From positions 753 to 64,752 of the forward strand of contig CAYXGW010000002.1 of NCBI GenBank assembly GCA_964464595.1: a stretch of 64,000 nucleotides of DNA, given 5' to 3'. The notes under the pieces were generated by a model. That model had not been told where the DNA came from. It was given only the letters and a program-made list of their open reading frames with translations, and made no database searches. Below are positions 1 to 42,722 of this stretch, one piece after another; the first letter of the stretch is position 1, and every line of letters begins with the position of its first letter. This DNA comes from an uncultured Deferribacteres bacterium. GTDB lineage: Bacteria > Zhuqueibacterota > JdFR-76 > DREG01. The position numbers and the translations under genes were made by a program.

Positions 1-1525
1 TGCCATCCGGAAATTTGAAGCCGCCTGTCCTCGATTCAATGGTGCCCGCAACAGAAAGCATTTCAGTTGGGAAATTGGTACCAATACCAACACCCCCGGC
101 GGCGCGAATTAAGAATTGGCTATCTGCCGAAGAGCCAAAAACGCCTCCGGAAGAATCAGACCATACAAATGCCCCGGTATGGTTTGCTTCGGCCTTTCGT
201 CCGGCAGCGAAACTGTAATTACCCCTGGCAAAATTAAATAACCCTCCGGGAACAGTTGAATGTTTTCCAGTAGCACCATTGACGCTCCCTCCTGAAACAG
301 TAGCCAGGAGGCCAGATGCTACGTTTCGCGTCCCACCCCCTATTGTTGAGAGCTCACCGCTAGCTTTATTGTTTAAGCCCCCACCGACTGTAGCAATCTG
401 GGCGGAGAATAAATCGGTATCCCCATCGCCAGCCTGGTTGTCTAGACCTCCCCCAATTGTACCGTAATGATCTGTAACTATGTTAGGTGAAATGCTACTT
501 CCTCCTCCGCCTATACTCACTCCTCCGGCCCCGTTTGTCGCCAAGTTAGTTGCGCCACCTCCAATGACATTGACAAAATCGTCTGCTGACGATTCCAAAC
601 GAAGTGCTTGTCGACCAAATACACGGAATACCAAAGGTATGTTGTCGATTGTGCCCACGAAATTGCTGTCAGGATTGGTTCCGCTGTTGCCGTTCAGGGA
701 CCAACTGGTATTGTTATCGCTGTTGGCAGCCGGCTGCCAGGTGCCCGTACCGGAAGCATCAGAAGTCAGCACAAAACCGCTGGATGCGCCCGTTGGCAAT
801 TTGAAGCCCAGCGTTTGGGTGGTTCCGGCAACATCGAGCCTATGGGCAGGAGTGGTCGTCCCAATGCCAACATTGCCGCCGGTATCAATCGTCATTCTTG
901 TTCCTGTAAGTCCCTTGAAATGCAATCTGCTTTCAAATCCGATGGTTAATTCATCAGACGCCACTATTCTCTGATGTTGACTATCGTTAGAAAACATCTG
1001 TAGAGTCTGGGATAATGGATTTGTTTTGCTTACCAACTTAAGGGTACCATTGGTTTTGATACCTCCTGCGACATCGAGTTTGCTATTTGGGTCTGGAGAA
1101 GTAGTGCCAATACCAACGGTGCCTTCGGAAGGAAAAACGTTGGAATTACCGAGCACTGACAATGAAGAAAAACTATAGGCGGAAGAAGTAAGCTCTGTGC
1201 GAGGCTGCAATTCAGTGCCGCCATCGATTGATATTCCGAGCCAGTATTGCTTGTCGAAAGCCAAATCTATCGGATTCACGCTGCCCAGGATTACGTCTAG
1301 AATTCCGTCAACCAGATCCAAGGATTGCGTTTCCGTCCAGATTGACGTTCCGCCCGTATTCACGTCATAAAAGTTAAAAGTGATCTGGAAGCTGCCATCA
1401 GGCACAACAGTGCCACTGTCATCAGTCAATACGGCCTGGTAGCTAATGGTTTTCGGAATCTGGCCAAAAACACTCATTATGAAAACAGCTAAAAGAAAAA
1501 CTATGGTTAAGTTGATTTTTCTCAT
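1..1525 (-). CDS. Glycine-rich tail-fibre-like / collagen-like cell-surface protein with an N-terminal signal peptide. The 5' end (ATG at 1523-1525) is complete; the 3' end runs off the window.
   Basis: The uninterrupted minus-strand frame translates as MRKINLTIVFLLAVFIMSVFGQIPKTISYQAVLTDDSGTVVPDGSFQITFNFYDVNTGGTSIWTETQ..., followed by repeated IGTTSP / LDVAGG / TIGGG motifs typical of Bacteroidetes 'tail fiber domain' surface proteins. It is absent from the ORF track only because it runs off the window edge. The plus-strand ORFs at 15-974 are shadow ORFs of this gene. Confidence 0.6.
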   Translation of the reverse strand, partial: MRKINLTIVFLLAVFIMSVFGQIPKTISYQAVLTDDSGTVVPDGSFQITFNFYDVNTGGTSIWTETQSLDLVDGILDVILGSVNPIDLAFDKQYWLGISIDGGTELQPRTELTSSAYSFSSLSVLGNSNVFPSEGTVGIGTTSPDPNSKLDVAGGIKTNGTLKLVSKTNPLSQTLQMFSNDSQHQRIVASDELTIGFESRLHFKGLTGTRMTIDTGGNVGIGTTTPAHRLDVAGTTQTLGFKLPTGASSGFVLTSDASGTGTWQPAANSDNNTSWSLNGNSGTNPDSNFVGTIDNIPLVFRVFGRQALRLESSADDFVNVIGGGATNLATNGAGGVSIGGGGSSISPNIVTDHYGTIGGGLDNQAGDGDTDLFSAQIATVGGGLNNKASGELSTIGGGTRNVASGLLATVSGGSVNGATGKHSTVPGGLFNFARGNYSFAAGRKAEANHTGAFVWSDSSGGVFGSSADSQFLIRAAGGVGIGTNFPTEMLSVAGTIESRTGGFKFPDG

Positions 1526-10203: not shown

Positions 10204-11523
10204 TTACTCATTATCATTAACTTTAATAACAATCAAAGTTAAATCGTCTTCAACTCTATTGATCATACTAAACTTGTAGATTTCGGAGGTAATTTTATTA
10301 ATTAATTCAGCAGCACTTAAATGTGAGTTTTCTTGAATAATTTCAATCACATTATTCAGCTCAAAAAAATCACCGTTCGGATTTTGAGCTTCGATAAGTC
10401 CATCCGTATAAAAAAGGGCGATATCTCCAGGGATTAGTTGAACTTTAGATTCGGTGTATGGCATATTCTGAATAAATCCAAGTACAGTACCGCCTAGTTT
10501 CAATTCAATGAGACCGCCGTTTTTCCGAATAATAACTGGTGGAAAATGTCCTGCATTCGTGTAAACAAAATCTCGAGTTTTGGGATTTAATTCGCCATAA
10601 AAAAAGGTAGCATACGTATCCGCGATTGTAGTTTCATAGATCAAGTTATTCAATGATACCATGGTATCCTGCACAGAAAACGTCTCATGCAATAGGCTTT
10701 TGTATGTCGAAAATAAGGATGCCATTAAAATAGCTGCCGGAGTTCCTTTTCCGGAAACATCGCCAATCGCAACTCCGATATTTCCACTGGCAAGGCGAAC
10801 CAAATCATACAAATCACCACTTACCGTTTTGGAAGGCAGGTTAAAACTTGCAAACTCAAAACCATTTTCTTGTGGCAAAGATTTGGATAAAATCGCCTCC
10901 TGTATTTGTCTCGCAATTAATAGGTCTCTTTCCAAGTCCCTTGATTTTAACAATTCCCGGTGCAAGCGAGCATTATCCAGAGCAATCGCAGCATGATTTG
11001 CAAAAGCTGTTAAAAGTTGAAAATCCTTTTGGTTAAACGCATTTAATCGATCTGATTCAAGATTTAAAACTCCAATCAATTTTTCCTTTGCAAATAGAGG
11101 TACCAGCATTGCAGACTGAGTTTCATTTTTCACGTTTACATATAGCCGGTCTTTGGAAGTATCCGGACAAATCTTCCCCTTTCCTTCTCTCGCGACCACT
11201 CCTGTAAGCCCTCTTCCTACTTTTAAATGCGCTCTTTTTACAGTTTCTTCATCATATCCACGGATTGCCTCGGGGATAAGTTTATTGGTAGTTGGATCTA
11301 TTAAGAAGATTCCAGCAGCATCAAAAGGAATTACCCGGTTCAAATAATCAAATATTAAATTGAGGACATTATTTAAATTCAAAGTTGAATTGATATTCTT
11401 GCTTAGTTCAAGAAGCATAGATTTCTCAAGAGATTCCTTTTGCAATTCCTTTAAAAGGCTAGCAATCTCATCTGTTATATTTGGGGTGTCTTTCAGTAAT
11501 CTTTGAATATCTAGAGCAGCCAT
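10204..11523 (-). CDS. GAF-domain PP2C (SpoIIE/RsbU-type) serine phosphatase
   Basis: The N-terminus is GAF. The C-terminus is a PPM-type phosphatase with the typical SGDLYD, GDVSGKG and FYTDGLIEA motifs. Confidence 0.85.
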   Translation of the reverse strand: MAALDIQRLLKDTPNITDEIASLLKELQKESLEKSMLLELSKNINSTLNLNNVLNLIFDYLNRVIPFDAAGIFLIDPTTNKLIPEAIRGYDEETVKRAHLKVGRGLTGVVAREGKGKICPDTSKDRLYVNVKNETQSAMLVPLFAKEKLIGVLNLESDRLNAFNQKDFQLLTAFANHAAIALDNARLHRELLKSRDLERDLLIARQIQEAILSKSLPQENGFEFASFNLPSKTVSGDLYDLVRLASGNIGVAIGDVSGKGTPAAILMASLFSTYKSLLHETFSVQDTMVSLNNLIYETTIADTYATFFYGELNPKTRDFVYTNAGHFPPVIIRKNGGLIELKLGGTVLGFIQNMPYTESKVQLIPGDIALFYTDGLIEAQNPNGDFFELNNVIEIIQENSHLSAAELINKITSEIYKFSMINRVEDDLTLIVIKVNDNE

Positions 11524-11747
11524 TAAGACCTCTGGTACTTTCCTATCTGTTAGTCTAATTAAGTAATTCGGCTTGTTAATTAAAAGTGATAAGTATATTA
11601 ATAAACAACGAGATATTCAACAACAAAGTTCCCCAAAATCCGGTTAAAAAGTTTTTATTACAAATAAATTAAATTTGTTTAAAAAGACAGATAATTTAAG
11701 AAAATTGATAATTTTAACTATTTGGTGTTCTCTGTTCCCCTACCGTT

Positions 11748-32890: not shown

Positions 32891-33331
32891 CTATGTATTT
32901 GATTCGCTATTAATATTTTGAATAACAAAATGATGTGATGCGATGATCATTTTCTTTCTTAAATAAAAACGATGCGCGGCAAAGCGTTGAACTCCTGAAT
33001 CCAGGTGAAACTGATGACAAGAATTCTCTTTAGCATGATTAACCAGCCAATCAAATAATTGATCTCCATACCCTTTTGATCGATTTTTAGCATTAGTAAC
33101 CAAATCATCTACGTAAAAAAACTTTCCCCAGGCTAAACATTCCGAAACGCGGAAACCGGCAACTGCTTTTATTTCATTTTCCTCTTCCAAATAAACAAGA
33201 CGATATCCTAAAGAAATTTGTCTGTTAACTTGTTTTAAGTAATCAAATTCGGAAAGGTGTGTCCGCAATTGCCCCATTGTGGGGTAACATTCTAATATTT
33301 GTTGTTCAGATTCTGCGAATTCGATAGGCAT
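32891..33331 (-). CDS. GNAT-family N-acetyltransferase
   Basis: It has the acetyl-CoA binding motif region (KNRSKGYGDQLFDWLVNHA). Confidence 0.7.
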   Translation of the reverse strand: MPIEFAESEQQILECYPTMGQLRTHLSEFDYLKQVNRQISLGYRLVYLEEENEIKAVAGFRVSECLAWGKFFYVDDLVTNAKNRSKGYGDQLFDWLVNHAKENSCHQFHLDSGVQRFAAHRFYLRKKMIIASHHFVIQNINSESNT

Positions 33332-33454
33332 TAATCCTCCGAATAAGGGATAATATCAAACCAAAAAATAAAATATTTATGATTAGAAACTTCATCTAAC
33401 ACTTTACTCGAAATCGATGATATAAAAAATCAAGGCTAACATTTAACAAGTACA

Positions 33455-33776: not shown

Positions 33777-35456
33777 CTAATAACCTTCCGCAATACCCTT
33801 ACCTCTTGGATCGGCACCTCCGGTAAATCGAATCGGTTTGCCATTTTCATATTCAATAGCAAGTCCATGAGCATTTCCCAATCCTTTTACAACTTGGACA
33901 TTATGTCCTAATTTAATAAGTTGATCCCGGATTGATTCTGCAATTCCTGTCTCTACTGCAATCCTATCAGGCTCAATAAAGCTTATGCGAGAAGCTGCGA
34001 TTGCTTGCTGGATATTCATACCAAATTCAATCATGTTTAGCACCATTTGAGGAACAGTCTGGCCAATTGTATGTCCACCAGGGGTACCAATAGCAACCCG
34101 TGGTTTACCGTTTTTAAAGATTAGTGTGGGACAATCACCGGAGAGTTTATGACGTCCGGCATGAGCGTCCATAGGATTGCCTTTCGGTTCGAATGTGCAG
34201 TAAGCTAAAGAATTATTCAACCAGATACCTGTGCCTTTTGGCATGATTTTACTGCCAAACGAATTACCTAAAGTTTGAGTTGCACTTACGATATTTCCCC
34301 ATTTATCTGCAACAACAAAATGTGTTGTATTGATACCATCATTTGCAAAATTGCTAGGAGGAACGAATTGTTTCGCTTCATCAGGCGAAATAGCCAAAAT
34401 CTGCCGGCTCCAATATTCATTCGATAAAAGTGTTTCAAGGGGTGGAGGATTCTTTTCAGGATCTCCGGCATACCGAAGCCGACACCAAAAAGCGTGTTTC
34501 GTTACTTCAGCAAACCTGTGAAGATATTCGGAGCTATTGTGACCGACTGCCTGGTTATCATACAAACTCATCATTCCCAATCGAATTAGTGACGGAAAAG
34601 CCGTTGAAGGCGGAGAGGCGGTTATCACCTGATATTCATGATAATCAATCCGGATAGGATCATACCATTCAGCCTCATTGATCTTCATATCTTCGATTGA
34701 AAGAAATCCTCCGGCTTTTTGCATGGCTGCATCAATAGCTTGTCCAATCTCTCCACCATGAACAACTTTTGCTCCCTGTTTTGCAATTTTCCGAAAAGAA
34801 TCAGCGAGGTCTTTTTGGATAAGCAACTCTCCAGTACTTAATGGTACATTGTCTTTACCATAAAATTCTTTTGCATGATCAGGAAAATTTGGATACGCGC
34901 TTTTGATTAGCCGGGCTGTCCTGTCATTTAGAATCACCCCATTTTCGGCAGTCTTTATTGCTGTTTCGAATAGTTCTTCCCAGCCTATGGACCCAAAACG
35001 TTTCCACATAGACTCCCAGGCAATTACATTTCCTGGAGTGGAGACTGCCTTTGCCCCCCGTCTATTTTTCTTATAATTCGGTGTTGGAGCACGATAAACA
35101 TCTGAGTCCACGTTTTTTGGAATTCGTCAGCTGCAATTTAAAAACAGAGCTTGTTCTTTTTCGGCATCATAAACAAGTACAGTCCCATAGCCGCCAATTC
35201 CTGACATCATGGGTTCTACAACATTGAGCATTGCTGCGATAGAAACAGCCGCATCGAAAGCATTTCCACCGGATTTTAAAATATCTAGACCAGCTTTTGT
35301 CGCCAATGGATGAGCCGAACTAACCATACCAAGGGTTCCAATGGCCGGTACCGTATTAGAATTTTGAGTTGAATATACTGTACTACTTCGATCACAAGAA
35401 GTGCTAAGAAACAATATTTGAAGAAATAGAAAAAGAACTATTCGTCTCATGAGCAT
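33777..35456 (-). pseudogene. ggt: Gamma-glutamyltranspeptidase gene interrupted by a single in-frame TGA (signal peptide plus N-terminus in 35127-35456, the rest in 33777-35111)
   Basis: Both ORFs are in the same frame and together cover a complete GGT (MLMRRIVLFLFL... signal peptide, then the Thr-nucleophile region TGIWLNN and the GG motif TPGGHTIGQ). The minus-strand codon at 35127-35129 is TGA. Confidence 0.75.
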
Positions 35457-35593
35457 TTCCTTTCCGAAGTCAAATTCTCAAATCTGTAATTTGCATCTTA
35501 AGCCTGTATAATAATAATTCCTTCATATCCGGAACTGATGACCATAAAATCAAACCATCGACAGGTTGATCTTTTACCGTAAGTATTGCCGTC

Positions 35594-35663
35594 GCATCGT
35601 CAACCCCAATCTTTACACGTAAAACATAGCCTATCATTAAATTGGGTGACTAGGACTCGAACG
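35594..35663. repeat. Partial copy (C) of an intergenic repeat family, ending in a tRNA-3'-end-like motif GGTGACTAGGACTCGAAC
   Basis: GCATCGTCAACCCCAATCTTTACACGTAAAACATAGCC is near-identical to 37731-37767 of copy A. Confidence 0.6.
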
Positions 35664-35690
35664 GCTCACTTTGCTAATTCTGAGCCGTTC
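35660..35690. repeat. Perfect 10-bp-stem palindromic hairpin GAACGGCTCA-N11-TGAGCCGTTC (REP-like)
   Basis: Read directly from the sequence. A related half-site GGAGCCGTTCAGCTC-TTTTTT occurs at 35762-35781 and a second hairpin at 37404-37435. Confidence 0.65.
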
Positions 35691-35994
35691 ACCGACAATA
35701 ACCGACAATAAAGAACACTTGCATTTTCAAATGAGTTAAATAATTGTCTTTTGATAAATAGGAGCCGTTCAGCTCTTTTTTGAAATTATCTATGTAATAT
35801 GTTAGAAGCTGTGGATCGGACGGACATAACAATCCGGCTAACCCGCAAGCGATGAAATACTACAAAACACTGAAAAACCACTAAACTAATTTGAAAACCA
35901 AATCTCGAAAATCACTCTATGACAAGCTTGACGGGTTAAGCCAAGAGTTAGGCCAAGGATGAAAAAAACGGCTTTCCAAATAACGTAAAAATAA

Positions 35995-37290
35995 CTATTG
36001 CAACAGCACCATCTTGCGAGTTTCAACAAACGAGCCTGCCTCTAAGCGGTACAGATAGACCCCGCTCGCCAACTGTCTTCCCGCATGGTCTCGTCCATCC
36101 CACTCAATCTGATACGCACCAGCGGGCTTTCTTTCCGTGAGCAGTGTTCTAACTTCCTGGCCCAACTGGTTGTAAACTGTTACTTCGACATCACTGACCG
36201 TTGAAAGCTGATAGGTGATGACTGTGGACGGATTAAAGGGATTTGGATAATTCTGATCTAGCGTAAATGAAGACGAGATTCTTGTGGAAATCTCCTCGAC
36301 CGAGGTTGTGGACTCTACGCTCCGAAATACACGGCTAGAAGCCCCGGCAAAAATGTCGCCGCTACTATTGATGGCAAAAGTTTTGACATTATTAAAACCC
36401 TTCAAGCCGGTATTGATTTGGATCCAGTTGTCGCCGTTGTCGATGGAACGAAACACACCACCGGTACGAGTCCCGGCAAAAATGTCACCGCTGCTATTGA
36501 TGGCAAGAGCTTGGACATAGGTATTTTTCAAGACGGTATTATTGGTTTGGATCCAGTTGTCGCCATTATTGTTGGAGCGAAACACACCCCACGAAGAAAG
36601 CCCGACAAAAATGTCACCGCTTCTATTGATTGCAAGAGCTTGGACAAAATTAAAACTCTTCAAGCAGTTATTGATTGGGATCCAGTTATCGCCGTTGTCC
36701 GTGGAGCGAAACACACCACCGACAAAAAAATTTGTCCCGGCAAAAATGTCGCCGCTGCTATTGATGGCAAGAGCAACGATACTACGATATATAATATCTG
36801 TCAAGCCGTTATTGATTTGGATCCAGTTTTCGCCGTTGTCCGTGGAGCGAAATACGCCGTAAAGATGTGTCCCGGCAAAAATGTCACCGCTGCTATTGAT
36901 GGCAAGAGCTGGGATATCAGCATTATATGTAAATCCATTATTGAATTCTGTCCAGTTATCACCGTTGTCGGTGGAGCGAAACACACCGCCTAAATGAGTC
37001 CCGACAAAAATGTCGCCGTTGCTATTGATGGCAAGGGACCTGACCCAAGTATTTTCCAAGACGGTATTATTGGTTTGGATCCAGCTATCGCCGTTGTCCG
37101 TGGAGCGAAACACACCGCCATAATAAGTCCCGGCGAAAATGTCGTCGCTGCTATTAATGGCAAGTTCATATATAGACGATCCAACGGGTTGATTGGTTTG
37201 CTGCCAGAAATTCGGCTGTGAATATCCAAGACTACTAATGAATGATACTGTGAGCAGCGTAATAAGCGGCTTGAATGTGTTTTTTTTCAT
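35995..37290 (-). CDS. T9SS-secreted protein with 8 BNR/Ycf48-like propeller repeats (STDNGDNWIQ...) and a C-terminal T9SS type-A sorting domain
   Basis: It has a signal peptide and repeats of about 42-50 aa with a DNGDNW core. The C-terminus LDQNYPNPFNPSTVITYQL...GVYLYRLEAGSFVETRKMVLLQ is a typical Por secretion-system CTD. Confidence 0.8.
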   Translation of the reverse strand: MKKNTFKPLITLLTVSFISSLGYSQPNFWQQTNQPVGSSIYELAINSSDDIFAGTYYGGVFRSTDNGDSWIQTNNTVLENTWVRSLAINSNGDIFVGTHLGGVFRSTDNGDNWTEFNNGFTYNADIPALAINSSGDIFAGTHLYGVFRSTDNGENWIQINNGLTDIIYRSIVALAINSSGDIFAGTNFFVGGVFRSTDNGDNWIPINNCLKSFNFVQALAINRSGDIFVGLSSWGVFRSNNNGDNWIQTNNTVLKNTYVQALAINSSGDIFAGTRTGGVFRSIDNGDNWIQINTGLKGFNNVKTFAINSSGDIFAGASSRVFRSVESTTSVEEISTRISSSFTLDQNYPNPFNPSTVITYQLSTVSDVEVTVYNQLGQEVRTLLTERKPAGAYQIEWDGRDHAGRQLASGVYLYRLEAGSFVETRKMVLLQ

Positions 37291-37403
37291 AACTCATCTT
37301 CATAGTTCAATTGTCCACCGCACAACAGCTAGAAAGAGCCTACAGTATGGGAGCCCTAACTTATTATTGACTAGCCATTATAGTAAATTTTAAAATGTAT
37401 CTC

Positions 37404-37435
37404 GAACGGCCGCTTTTATCTATTTTGAGCCGTTC
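37404..37435. repeat. Palindromic hairpin GAACGGC-N18-GCCGTTC, the same family as 35660-35690
   Basis: It shares CTCGAACGGC ... GAGCCGTTC with the element at 35658-35690. Confidence 0.55.
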
Positions 37436-37619
37436 GTTTATATTATGAAATATACTGTATTTACAGGAATTAGTCAATGATTTAAAGATATACTATTAGC
37501 TGAGCGGCTCACTTGATGCTGATTTTGAGGTATTCTTGAAAGTGACTTTGACGACGGTTCGATACCATAATAATTTACGTTGTAAAATAATTTCAACGAT
37601 CAATCGCCTGATACATATT

Positions 37620-37799
37620 GGATTTTTACCTCCCCAATCAACTTGTTTTTTATTGAATAGATTCTAAAAACTTGCCATCTATACACGTAAATTAAGCTTA
37701 ACAATCAATGAATTTAGCAGAGCCATCGTTGCATCGCCAACCCCAATCTTTACACGTAAAAACAGCCAATATTTACAGCAGGTGATGAGACTCGAACCC
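37620..37799. repeat. Intergenic repeat copy A (about 180 bp). The first 100 bp are about 88% identical to copy B and the 3' part matches copy C, including the tRNA-3'-like GGTGATGAGACTCGAACC.
   Basis: Alignment of 37620-37719 with 38897-38996, and of 37731-37799 with 35594-35663. Confidence 0.7.
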
Positions 37800-38000
37800 G
37801 CGCATATTACTTAACGTAACGGCTGTTGCGCGCCTGTGTTTATGTACTTAATTAAATTAAGACCACTAAATCTTGCTGACTCACCAAAGCCAAATATCGT
37901 GCACCCTGATAGGTGTCACAACCAGCCACATGTTAGGGCATGAATCGTAGTGGTACTCCACAGTACCACAGGCGACAGCTTTATTGTGTTAAATAGTTTT

Positions 38001-38696
38001 TTACCTATCAGCCTTTGGCAATAATGCCGCAGGAACTTGCTGCCCGTACTCTTTATCTTCAATCTTTACATAATTTACTAATACTAATCTAGATTTAGTT
38101 AAAGAGCCTATATGTCCAATTCCTTTTGCATAATAGACTTTAGCAGTGTCTGCGGATATTGTATCAAAATACTGATAATTAAAGACATCTTGAAAAACCC
38201 CAGCAGGTGTTGTCATTTGTCCGATATAATGAGCAGTGAATGATGTTGCTTTCGAATCATATATACGCCAGTTGTGTCCATCTTCAGCGAATACTTCTGC
38301 AATACGCGTTTCATTATATGGATTTTCGTATGTGTCTCTTTTTACCAAAGATGTCGCATACAAATACCCATCTCTTACAAAGAGATAGCTGAAATGAATT
38401 GAATTGTTTGTTGAAGAAGTATTACTTTCTTTAATATAAACTTCTTGACCGTCCTCCCTAGATGCTCTTCCAGAAATTTTCGTGTTTTGGTAAGTACCAT
38501 CTGAATTGTTGACATATTGTTTTAAGATCCCTACTTTTAATGGAGTGTATGACTCTCCTGTTTCGTCAACTTCAGAAAAGTCTGTGGGTGAAGAACAACT
38601 GTGCCCGAAGATTAAAATAGATGTTAATAACACAAAACGACAAATTAATTTATCCATTTTATTACCTTCCTTTTTTAGTGAATAAAACGAAAACAC
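38001..38696 (-). CDS. Hypothetical secreted/lipoprotein. The likely start is the internal Met at about 38657 (MDKLICRFVLLTSILIFGHSCSS).
   Basis: It has a signal peptide with Cys, a Tyr/Asn-rich mature part, and no recognisable domain. Confidence 0.45.
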   Translation of the reverse strand: MFSFYSLKKEGNKMDKLICRFVLLTSILIFGHSCSSPTDFSEVDETGESYTPLKVGILKQYVNNSDGTYQNTKISGRASREDGQEVYIKESNTSSTNNSIHFSYLFVRDGYLYATSLVKRDTYENPYNETRIAEVFAEDGHNWRIYDSKATSFTAHYIGQMTTPAGVFQDVFNYQYFDTISADTAKVYYAKGIGHIGSLTKSRLVLVNYVKIEDKEYGQQVPAALLPKADR

Positions 38697-38896
38697 TATT
38701 AGGCATGTTTTTGTTCACCAATCAAACGATTTCACAAAATCTCCAAGGATTCAACGGCTTAAGTGTGTTCAGCGATTAACAAGTTATTCTATAATTTTTA
38801 GATAACACCCCAAACTTATAAGATTTTTAATTGACTCGCAAGAGAAACTTAACTTCTTACAAGGTTGGATGCACCTTTAAACTTCTCTACGTTATT

Positions 38897-38996
38897 GGGT
38901 TTTCACCTCCCTAACAGTTTGTTTTTTATTAAATAAAATTCTGAAAACTTGCCAGCTATACACGTAAATTAAGCTTAGCAATGAATAAATTTAGCG
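38897..38996. repeat. Intergenic repeat copy B
   Basis: GGGTTTTCACCTCCCTAACAGTTTGTTTTTTATTAAATAAAATTCTGAAAACTTGCCAGCTATACACGTAAATTAAGCTTAGCAATGAATAAATTTAGCG aligns with copy A. Confidence 0.7.
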
Positions 38997-39314
38997 TGCT
39001 AACGTTGCAGCCCCCATGCTTATACCTAAAACAACGAATCTTTTAAATCCTCTATTCCGGATACGATAAATAGCGTCTCTTAAATTTTGCATATTTATAT
39101 TGATTCGCGATTCGTGAAACTCACCCGAACTGTCGCCAGTTCCGAAAAAATCAAAACGCTCCACATAGAAGTCTGCCTTGGCAAAGCTCCTTGCAGATTC
39201 CACAAATAAGCGATTACTTTCGGATTTGTTTCCTGTAAAACCATGACACATCAGGATGCATGTGTTATTTTCTTGAATCGGATGATTAGCAATTCCTACT
39301 AATTGTTTGTTCAA
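38991..39314 (-). pseudogene. Alpha/beta-hydrolase gene truncated after the nucleophile elbow (107 aa; GISMG). The stop codon is supplied by repeat copy B.
   Basis: It has HGFTGNK (oxyanion region) and GISMGAA (GxSxG) but lacks the Asp/His half of the catalytic triad. The ORF ends exactly at the boundary of the 100-bp repeat. Confidence 0.6.
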
Positions 39315-39491
39315 ACTTTCAAATGTGAAAGGAGATTAAAGCATAAATTGGATTTCCGATTTAGAATAACTGATAAAATAATTATTGAAATAATTAGAAA
39401 GTTATCTTTTCTATTCCACAATTATTTAGGACGTTTAGATGAATGTAGATTCAAAAAATCAAAGGGCATTGTTTCTTGAGATCAGGATGTT

Positions 39492-41348: not shown

Positions 41349-42722
41349 GTGTTTAATAAAATATTGGTCGCAAATCGCGGAGAAATAGCTCTTCGAGTCA
41401 TTCGGGCCTGTAAAGAACTTGGCATTAAAACAGTAGCAATTTATTCATCTGCAGATACTGACTCGCTGCATGTTCGTTTTGCTGACGAAGCTGTTTGTAT
41501 TGGGCCCCCACCCAGTTATGAAAGTTATTTAAATATCCCCCGCATAATAAGTGCAGCAGAAGTTACAAATGCAGACGCTATCCATCCTGGATATGGCTTT
41601 TTAGCTGAGAACGCCCATTTTGCTGACATTACCGAATCTTGTAATATGCAGTTTATTGGTCCACCTGCCAGTATTATCGATAAGATGGGGAATAAAGCCT
41701 TCGCTAAAACAACAATGAAGGAAGCCGGAGTACCCATTATACCCGGAAGCAAAGGAGTTCTAAAGAGCAGTGATGCAGCTAAAAAATAAGCCAAAATTAT
41801 TGGTTATCCCATCATTCTAAAGGCATCGGCCGGTGGTGGGGGCAAAGGTATGCGTGTTGTCCACAATGAAAACGAATTGGAAACCGCATATCAGTCAGCG
41901 CAAAATGAGTCCAACGCGGCATTTGGAAATTCCGATTTATATCTTGAAAAATTTCTTCAAAAACCGAGACATATTGAAGTTCAAATACTAGCAGACCATT
42001 ATGGAAATGTGATCACTCTTGGTGAAAGAGAATGTTCTATTCAGCGGAAACACCAAAAACTAATTGAGGAATCTCCCTCACCTGCAGTTGATGATGAATT
42101 ACGAAAAAAAATTACATCAGCTGCACTAGAAGGAGCAAAAGCTGCGAGTTATAGAAGTGCCGGTACGATCGAATTTTTACTTGAACCTGATAATAATTTC
42201 TACTTTATGGAAATGAACACCCGGATTCAGGTAGAGCACCCTGTTACTGAAAGTGTATTTGGCATTGACCTTATTAATGAGCAGATACGAATAGCAGCAG
42301 GTGAAAGGATTAATGAATTTTCTCAGAATTTAAAAATGCGTGGCCATGCAATTGAATGTCGCGTAAATGCAGAAAACCCGGATAAAAATTTTGCCCCATC
42401 ACCTGGTACAATTACATATTTCCATATACCAGGAGGATTTGGTATTAGAGTTGACACTCATGCGTATGCTCAGTATGTTATTCCTCCCTATTATGATTCT
42501 TTAATTGCTAAGCTAATAGTACAAGGAAAAACAAGGGAGGAAGCACTCAAAAGAATGGAAAGAGCGCTAGAAGAATTTGTAATTGAAGGTATTTCGACTA
42601 CAATTCCCTTACACCAGCGAATTATCAAAAATGAAGATTTTAGAAATGGCAATTTCGATATCAATTTTATGGATGCGTTTTTGGAGAATGGAAAACATTT
42701 GGAAATTCAAAAAGAGGAGTAG
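41349..42722 (+). CDS. accC: Biotin carboxylase (acetyl-CoA carboxylase subunit) with a GTG start. It contains an in-frame TAA at 41787-41789 that splits it into 146-aa and 290-aa ORFs.
   Basis: It is collinear with AccC over the whole length ([15 protein letters not shown]...[20 protein letters not shown]...[14 protein letters not shown]...). The stop falls between DAAKK and AKIIGYP inside the ATP-grasp domain. Confidence 0.8.

Follow-up and report, generated by a model that had tools for sequence, protein, structure and literature searches.

The 64,000-nt stretch of contig CAYXGW010000002.1 analysed here (hereafter the window; G+C content 36%) carries, between a PAP2 phosphatase gene and the ggt gene, a dead alpha/beta-hydrolase gene whose two halves are separated by repeats and by genes unrelated to it. 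The repeats are very probably the junctions of DNA inserted in this split gene, and the locus a variable cassette site. This interpretation rests on the split gene, on a breakpoint common to the junctions, on a hybrid junction in the middle and on alternative cargo in sister species, all of which are shown by the sequences. The products of the PAP2, elongation factor P (EF-P) and GGT genes of the window are at least 90% identical to proteins annotated in metagenome-assembled genomes of candidate division KSB1 (for example MCH8125936.1 in GCA_022566355.1). All the genes of the locus discussed here lie on the minus strand, and the locus is described 5' to 3' on that strand (the gene strand), from high to low coordinates. 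Its order is PAP2, X-core-L (junction B), leader, lipoprotein-like gene, 3' flank, R-core-L (junction A), leader, BNR/type IX secretion system (T9SS) gene, 3' flank, R-core-Y (junction C) and ggt. X and Y are the two parts of the hydrolase gene and L and R the left-end and right-end modules of the cassettes, each cassette consisting of L, leader, gene, 3' flank and R. The two units measure 1276 and 2137 nt from core to core.

When the three long spacers were compared with the window by blastn, 37616-37733 (A) matched 38893-39009 (B) over 119 nt with 84.9% identity (E 2e-30), and 37727-37797 (A) matched 35590-35662 (C) over 73 nt with 80.8% identity (E 5e-12). No further significant repeat pair or copy was found in the 64 kb. 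The repeats noticed in a preliminary description of this DNA are thus real and above chance, and the long intergenic spaces that it gave as 535, 710 and 290 nt measure 538, 710 and 294 nt. The genes that it named, for a BNR/T9SS protein, a lipoprotein-like protein and a truncated hydrolase, agree with the list of open reading frames (ORFs), Pfam and NCBIfam. Its view of the repeats as three copies of one element was wrong: copy A (37616-37797) is composite, its left half resembling B and its right half C, while B holds the L half alone and C the R half alone. Furthermore, the identity between A and B is about 85% and not about 88%.

B and C overlap only in a 7-nt core, TGCAACG on the gene strand (CGTTGCA or CGTCGCA on the plus strand), which carries one substitution in C (TGCGACG). 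Outside this heptamer, the similarity of B to C is at the level of shuffled sequences. In global alignments anchored on the heptamer, the identity of A to B is 83% towards L and 54.5% away from it, and that of A to C is 76% towards R and 49.6% away from it, against about 48-52% for shuffled sequences. The identity therefore switches at the same heptamer in all three junctions. This core is located at 39003-39009 in junction B, an attL-like boundary of X with L, and at 35590-35596 in junction C, an attR-like boundary of R with Y. At 37727-37733, in junction A, it forms the R-L boundary of an attP-like hybrid that matches C solely on its R side and B solely on its L side.

The hydrolase fragments beside B and past C are halves of one ancestral gene, cut exactly at the core. 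X (39003-39332) is the 5' half of a gene of the Hydrolase_4/S33 type (codons about 9-118) and ends in ...FVVLGISMGAAT, just past the nucleophile elbow. The ORF called there (38991-39314) encodes the first 107 amino acids of the enzyme and stops just past the elbow, GISMG; Pfam Hydrolase_4 and Abhydrolase_1 match it over profile positions 2-91 only, and homologues in the PDB have 250-270 amino acids. Word-indexed protein searches with the X and Y ORFs returned these ORFs alone. Full-length relatives were found by an exhaustive HMMER search, including P0032 (256 amino acids, 56% identical). In tblastn, residues 9-118 of P0032 align to 39332-39003 (55% identity, E 3e-37), ending in GISMGAAT, and residues 108-155 align to 35628-35488, directly past C (YVLRVKIGVDDATAILTVKDQPVDGLILWSSVPDMKEL; E 5e-6). 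Y (35488-35589), which is truncated in the window, continues this gene at codon 119 (AILTVKDQPVDGLILWSSVPDMKEL...). With X ending in the residues AAT (codon 118) and Y opening with AIL (AILTVKDQP..., codon 119), the two rejoin seamlessly at the heptamer. Across this junction P0032, P0033 and P0034 all read G[IL]SMGAAT followed by AILT, and the reconstructed X.Y site would read ...GGGGCTGCAACG directly followed by GCAATACT... Moreover, the Hydrolase_4 score rises from 31.9 for X to 41-42 bits for an X+Y chimera (about +10 bits). Appending L to X adds 0.6 bit, and L was accordingly rejected as a decayed continuation of the hydrolase. In the sister contig L014, the entire 3' half is still present to the C-terminus (614-1051, corresponding to residues 110-256 of P0032, E 4e-37), with one internal stop.

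The right-end modules also include a piece of the target. R(A) (37734-37832, cassette 1) shares 81% identity with R(C) along 73 nt. It consists of a hairpin formed by 37799-37804 with 37827-37832, then GGTTCGAGTC...CACC and then degenerate hydrolase codons about 108-118, which read LRVKIGVGDAT and contain TTTACGTGTAAAGAT (local alignment to the end of X, p about 0.01). R(C) (35597-35690, cassette 2), inside which the second tblastn match begins, has the same succession: a 10-bp hairpin (35656-35690, GAACGGCTCA-N12-TGAGCCGTTC, z -2.4), then GTTCGAGTCC...CACCC, then degenerate hydrolase codons about 108-118 (YVLRVKIGVDDAT). The 33-39 nt of R next to the core are a degenerate hydrolase copy, with RVKIG for GISMG and two extra codons (p about 0.01) and about 65% identity to the target, and the distal part of R, the hairpin and GGTTCGAGTC...CACC, is not hydrolase-like. 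R(A) and R(C) have diverged by about 19-24%, with 94% identity over the 35 nt adjoining the core. Copy C lies in the remains of the hydrolase gene and is therefore not strictly intergenic; the repeats, first described as intergenic, are so only in part, since a portion of R is degenerate coding sequence.

The left-end modules are of another kind. L(B) (38893-39002, cassette 1) contains TTTACGTGTATAGCT, is not hydrolase-like and is 85% identical to L(A) (37616-37726, cassette 2), a divergence of about 15%. A 15-nt motif, TTTACGTGTAWAGAT, has only four occurrences in the window at no more than one mismatch, one per R and one per L, as direct repeats flanking the core on both sides. It belongs to a 34-nt stretch within L that partly duplicates the R-proximal segment (p<0.002; TTTACGTGTATAGAT in L(A)) and that may represent a relic of an earlier junction or a repeat bound by a protein.

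Comparison with sister populations, from which at least 15 contigs were collected through PAP2 and GGT cluster mates, indicates that the content of this site varies. The sister contigs share about 91% identity with the window over 50057-39453, a stretch that ends 39 nt beyond the stop codon of PAP2; on the other side their match begins within R (35624-35662) and continues through ggt. Between these flanks the sister order is an X remnant, the tail of L with an A-type post-L segment, a B-type leader, an HNH gene and R-core-Y. The X remnant is 27 nt long (FDFFGSGDS; 96% identity to 39155-39129) and what remains of L is its final ~10 nt, joined to the A-type post-L segment (91% identity to 37626-37574). 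At this left junction a deletion has left a scar, with an overlap of 11 nt. The B-type leader is 77% identical to 38893-38784 in blastn and precedes an unrelated 286-amino-acid HNH-domain gene, of which a paralogue may be present or not. Contig L004 covers the entire locus with one cassette. In L013 and L014, the arrays end with a different small membrane/coiled-coil gene, whose stop is a few bases away from the 35-nt R-proximal segment that follows and that leads into Y. Three or four unrelated cargos thus occur between the same ends, at the same position, in the same disrupted gene. The relatives clearly do not carry the same genes without variation, and the earlier suggestion of an array of independently acquired cassettes is supported, and made more precise, by the split gene, the exact hybrid nature of the middle repeat and this differing cargo.

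The cargo genes are co-oriented with the disrupted hydrolase, with one exception. The sole cargo in the opposite orientation, at 232-474 of L013 (reverse strand), is a fragment of a gene for a 23S rRNA intervening-sequence (four-helix-bundle) protein, which stands in place of the 5' part of that contig's last cargo gene. In the window, cassette 1 has a leader at 38697-38892 and encodes a 231-amino-acid secreted/lipoprotein-like protein (38001-38696), the N-terminus of which, read from the sequence, has a signal peptide and a lipobox-like motif. It has no family match in Pfam, NCBIfam or PADLOC, and no cargo protein matched the defence-system models of PADLOC. Cassette 2 has a leader at 37291-37615 and encodes a 431-amino-acid BNR/Sortilin-type beta-propeller with a T9SS C-terminal sorting domain (35995-37290; Pfam and NCBIfam). 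The G+C content of this BNR gene is 46.2%, against a mean of 36.5% (standard deviation 2.5) for the ORFs of the window, i.e. +3.9 standard deviations, and its nearest protein homologues are just 35-48% identical. It contains tandem 129-nt (43-codon) blade repeats at 36340-37164 with 76-78% DNA identity, and its product has about 60% of the roughly 700-amino-acid length of its homologues.

The surroundings of the BNR gene include further repeats. The word GAGCCGTTC/GAACGGCTC has four occurrences (0.06 expected), all at this locus, and forms hairpins (35656-35690, 35762-35775 and 37401-37435); the last of these lies in the leader of cassette 2 (GAACGGC...GCCGTTCGAG). The GAACGGCTC/GAGCCGTTC hairpins, of 35 nt, are the only good ones and lie away from the breakpoints. 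Two direct repeats, 35-nt hairpins ending in ...CCGTTCGAG, bracket the BNR gene at distances of 110 nt (upstream) and 305 nt (downstream), and the equivalent position of R(A) has a hairpin of different sequence followed by GGTTCGAG. The bracketing hairpins may constitute a second layer of cassette boundaries.

For the origin of this arrangement, we favour, with a probability of roughly 0.55, the addition of cassettes by conservative site-specific recombination at TGCAACG, driven by a recombinase acting in trans. Circular cassettes with an attachment site R-core-L would have integrated successively at a single nucleotide position of the hydrolase gene, an insertion hotspot with the chromosomal site X-core-Y, by strand exchange placed tentatively within or beside the 7-nt core. 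After two integrations, B would be attL, C would be attR and A a regenerated attP-like hybrid between the elements. The dedicated recombinase would be encoded elsewhere. As in tandem accretion, the flanks rejoin into one gene and an attB can be reconstructed, and A combines the R of C with the L of B, with the switch at the heptamer and a degenerate target copy preceding the core in A and C. Homology of an element to its target is usual among integrative elements. Site-specific accretion is the most economical explanation because of the common breakpoint, the hybrid middle junction and the same ends around different cargo. The common orientation of all cargo genes but one with the disrupted gene also speaks for it. 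Furthermore, since L has diverged by ~15% and R by ~19-24% and the G+C content of the BNR gene is foreign, separately acquired members of a family fit better than a recent local duplication.

Several observations weigh against this proposal. Profile searches found no integrase, recombinase or transposase family in the window ORFs of at least 100 amino acids or in the cassettes, in agreement with the preliminary description, which saw no integrase or transposase nearby. Dyad symmetry around the core is not above that of shuffled sequences with 14-nt arms, a test with little power for 7-9-nt arms. No attB (empty-site) allele was recovered, the closest intact hydrolase, P0032, being in a different gene context, and neither an excised circle nor an empty site is in evidence. 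The sister breakpoints are not all at the core: the left junction is the deletion scar, and in L013 and L014 R is reduced to about 35 nt. Illegitimate and homologous recombination have thus also shaped the locus. In addition, X is still an open frame of 107 codons although the disruption predates the separation of species that are 9% apart, which is mildly unexpected for an old pseudogene.

Moreover, none of the collections searched yielded a further copy of L or R, and mobility beyond this locus and lineage is therefore hypothetical. The GTDB species representatives were searched with an exact 19-mer of L only, which gave one chance match inside an unrelated gene. The L motif and a degenerate R motif gave 0 matches each in JGI metagenomes. 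In IMG/VR, the R motif gave 0 matches and the short shared motif 59 single matches without extension; the whole locus had no blastn match among plasmids and phages. In these searches, the element thus formally occurs only here, which the preliminary description had named, together with a local tandem duplication, as speaking against its own cassette reading. These word scans are weak negatives, since the copies are 15-20% apart and most relatives would escape exact-word searches.

The pattern of this locus agrees with the tandem accretion described for elements that have att sites and a lost integrase (PMC5704250) and with tandem islands bounded by direct repeats of their target (PMC3146451). 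The accretions of cis-mobilizable elements (CIMEs) of the ICESt1/ICESt3 type share with this locus the order attL, element, internal hybrid att, element, attR, the retention of att sites by units that encode no integrase, and a protein-coding or RNA gene as target, part of whose sequence is repeated at the element boundary (PMC5704250). However, known CIMEs are decayed integrative and conjugative or integrative and mobilizable elements and are far larger than the present units, which have 1.3 and 2.1 kb and one gene each. Insertion is here mid-gene and destructive and not at a 3' end, and the element-borne copy of the target is about 65% identical. For these units, whose mobility is putative, no cognate integrase and no parental integrative element, conjugative or mobilizable, is known. 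The ssrA islands of Dehalococcoides (PMC3146451) and the 'additive' flexible islands at tRNA genes are likewise strain-variable arrays at a fixed site, with a target-sequence repeat bounding each unit and some units without integration genes. In contrast, the target is here the nucleophile-elbow region of a hydrolase and not a tRNA or tmRNA gene, and no unit carries a serine or tyrosine integrase module.

Tandem islands bounded by target-gene repeats are already known as a kind. What is unusual here is the combination of single-gene units of 1.3-2.1 kb with long leaders, a mid-gene elbow target, no integrase in sight and non-hairpin sites.

Other kinds of element were considered and rejected. 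A transposon, insertion sequence or miniature inverted-repeat element does not fit, because no inverted repeat pairs the unit ends, the repeated ends are direct and there is no transposase. An island targeting tRNA or tmRNA genes does not fit either, since the window has no such gene (ARAGORN found 0 genes, and Rfam gave no tRNA or tmRNA match even at E up to 10). The sequence GGTTCGAGTC in R is T-loop-like, but as a tRNA-fragment att site it was rejected after the negative ARAGORN and Rfam results, its flanks, inspected by eye, not pairing as a T-stem.

The most serious alternative, doubtful in our view, dispenses with a dedicated recombinase. An old insertion in the hydrolase gene would have been followed by unequal or microhomology crossing-over of the X end with R, giving R.L and a tandem unit, and ordinary homologous recombination within the conserved leader and R.Y would later have exchanged the cargo, in the manner of a 'replacement' flexible island. 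Homologous recombination is indeed visible at the locus, since L004 arose by deletion between two paralogous genes of L003 that share a 400-nt repeat with 86% identity (L003 11284-11680 and 11988-12394). One paralogue encodes an HNH-domain protein and the other a membrane/coiled-coil protein, their C-terminal domain being the same, and L004 has a single recombinant gene at 10811-11692. Furthermore, the leaders are mosaics of A-type and B-type segments, the sister left junction is a deletion with an 11-nt overlap, and neither a recombinase gene nor dispersed copies were found. The locus also resembles replacement islands, which homologous recombination in conserved flanks maintains (PMC4033161), in having at the same chromosomal position in relatives different genes between conserved flanks.

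This resemblance alone does not explain the tandem hybrid junction, and an R.L hybrid and an additive tandem would not be expected from simple replacement through the flanks. At the breakpoint, only 7 nt are identical between the X end and R, and farther on the identity is about 65%, which makes them a poor substrate for RecA. Unequal crossing-over would duplicate the same cargo, whereas the units hold unrelated genes with unrelated flanks. The copies of L (15%) and R (19-24%) are far too diverged for a recent duplication. Finally, the degenerate R beside Y could be a decayed duplication of the target in X only if the open frame of X had been preserved by luck.

A primarily regulatory function of the repeats is improbable. 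According to this explanation, L and the leader would be a promoter and 5' untranslated region and the R hairpin a terminator, duplicated around genes for secreted proteins with no role in mobility. L and the leader do precede three unrelated genes, leader B and its sister counterpart have in common a TAnnTTTG box, as in Bacteroidetes-type promoters, preceded by a TTG, and hairpins lie downstream of cargo genes. However, promoter-like (sigma-70-like) sites are no commoner than in shuffled sequences, TAnnTTTG is not enriched in the window (84 found, 76 expected) and the hairpins have no T-tracts. A search of the long spacers for a known RNA family or riboswitch gave chance-level snoRNA matches only, there is no match to Rfam or to tRNAs, and R.L has no stable fold. 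A regulatory function would also leave the coincidence of the split-gene boundary and the hybrid nature of A unexplained. The preliminary description had proposed either a cassette array or a family of promoter, terminator or small-RNA modules; the former proposal is supported and the latter is not supported as a primary explanation. A regulatory role is nevertheless compatible with cassettes: a promoter role of L and the leader and a terminator role of the R hairpin may coexist with either model, with or without a dedicated recombinase.

It is very unlikely that the arrangement results from metagenome mis-assembly, in which cassettes of different strains would have been joined through their repeats. 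All sister contigs end inside the locus, either at 0 to 2.5 kb from PAP2 or, on the other side, at about 0-1.1 kb from ggt, and the source sample (SRR9822615), assembled independently in Logan, gives a contig that breaks off at 38832, 61 nt beyond L(B). The 400-nt repeat of the sister species themselves probably explains the breaks of their contigs. Moreover, the Logan contig reproduces junction B at 100% identity, and the longest exact shared words, 22 nt for A/B and 24 nt for A/C, are too short to mislead a final large-k assembly.

An integron-type array without integrase, i.e. a cluster of attC sites lacking integron-integrases (CALIN), would account for single co-oriented genes with repeats between them, for the lack of an integrase nearby and for GAAC/GTTC at the base of the hairpin stem, but is hardly credible, since R.L as single-stranded DNA folds more weakly than shuffled sequences (z +2.0, +1.7 and +0.7), the only good hairpins are continuous 35-nt structures without bulged spacer at about 60-100 nt from where the homology breaks off, the heptamer at the breakpoint does not fit GTTRRRY, the site is inside a hydrolase gene and not an attI, and most of each repeat lies 5' and not 3' of the cargo gene. 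A complete integron is likewise not found, the neighbours being the PAP2 phosphatase gene and ggt, with no Phage_integrase-type match in the window. The likeness to integron cassettes and CALINs lies in small, mostly single-gene, co-oriented cassettes at one site with no adjacent integrase. The differences are that the sites are not attC sites, which are imperfect hairpins of 55-140 nt with R''/L'' and L'/R' boxes at each cassette boundary, that the cassettes carry a long 5' leader (300-440 nt) and that neither attI nor intI is present in the window.

Other features of the window were noticed. A second variable spot lies directly downstream of ggt (about 33000-33380 in the window, 3050-4800 in L013 and 3166-3439 in L014). 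In the window it holds a GNAT acetyltransferase ORF (32891-33331), the 5' part of which is lacking in L014, and L013 has entirely different genes there (a response regulator and a TPR/CHAT protein). The ggt gene has one in-frame stop at 35127-35129 (minus strand), where GGA (Gly) has become TGA, and is split into ORFs 35127-35456 and 33777-35111. Similarly, accC has one in-frame stop at 41787-41789 (plus strand), where TCA (Ser) has become TAA, and is split into ORFs 41349-41789 and 41850-42722. Both changes are G:C-to-T:A transversions at positions where sister species have a sense codon. The accC lesion recurs in the Logan assembly, made independently from the same sample; a nonsense codon in a biotin carboxylase gene is odd for a living population. 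At the edge of the window (1-1200, minus strand), a large repetitive surface-protein-like ORF runs off its end; the first kilobase has 51% G+C, against 36% on average, and positions 1-1200 have no match to an RNA family.

On a broader scale, it is conceivable, though rather unlikely, that KSB1 bacteria possess an undescribed integron-like capture system. Promoter-bearing single-gene cassettes with a ~190-nt non-hairpin R-TGCAACG-L site would be inserted directionally by an unlinked recombinase at DNA encoding the conserved GxSxG elbow of an alpha/beta hydrolase, and would build strain-specific arrays of surface and defence-type genes.

If the cassettes are not mobile, the locus would still be a clean example of 'intergenic repeats' that are in fact the junction scars of a split gene, and of a variable islet that systematically breaks metagenome assemblies. 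If they are truly mobile, it can be viewed as a compact gene-capture site in an uncultured phylum, with neither a linked integrase nor attC hairpins, in which a conserved protein-coding motif region serves as landing pad. It would then add a variant to the few systems that build single-gene arrays, namely integrons and the accretion of CIMEs and islands, and would offer a defined site of ~190 nt with which to hunt for the recombinase.

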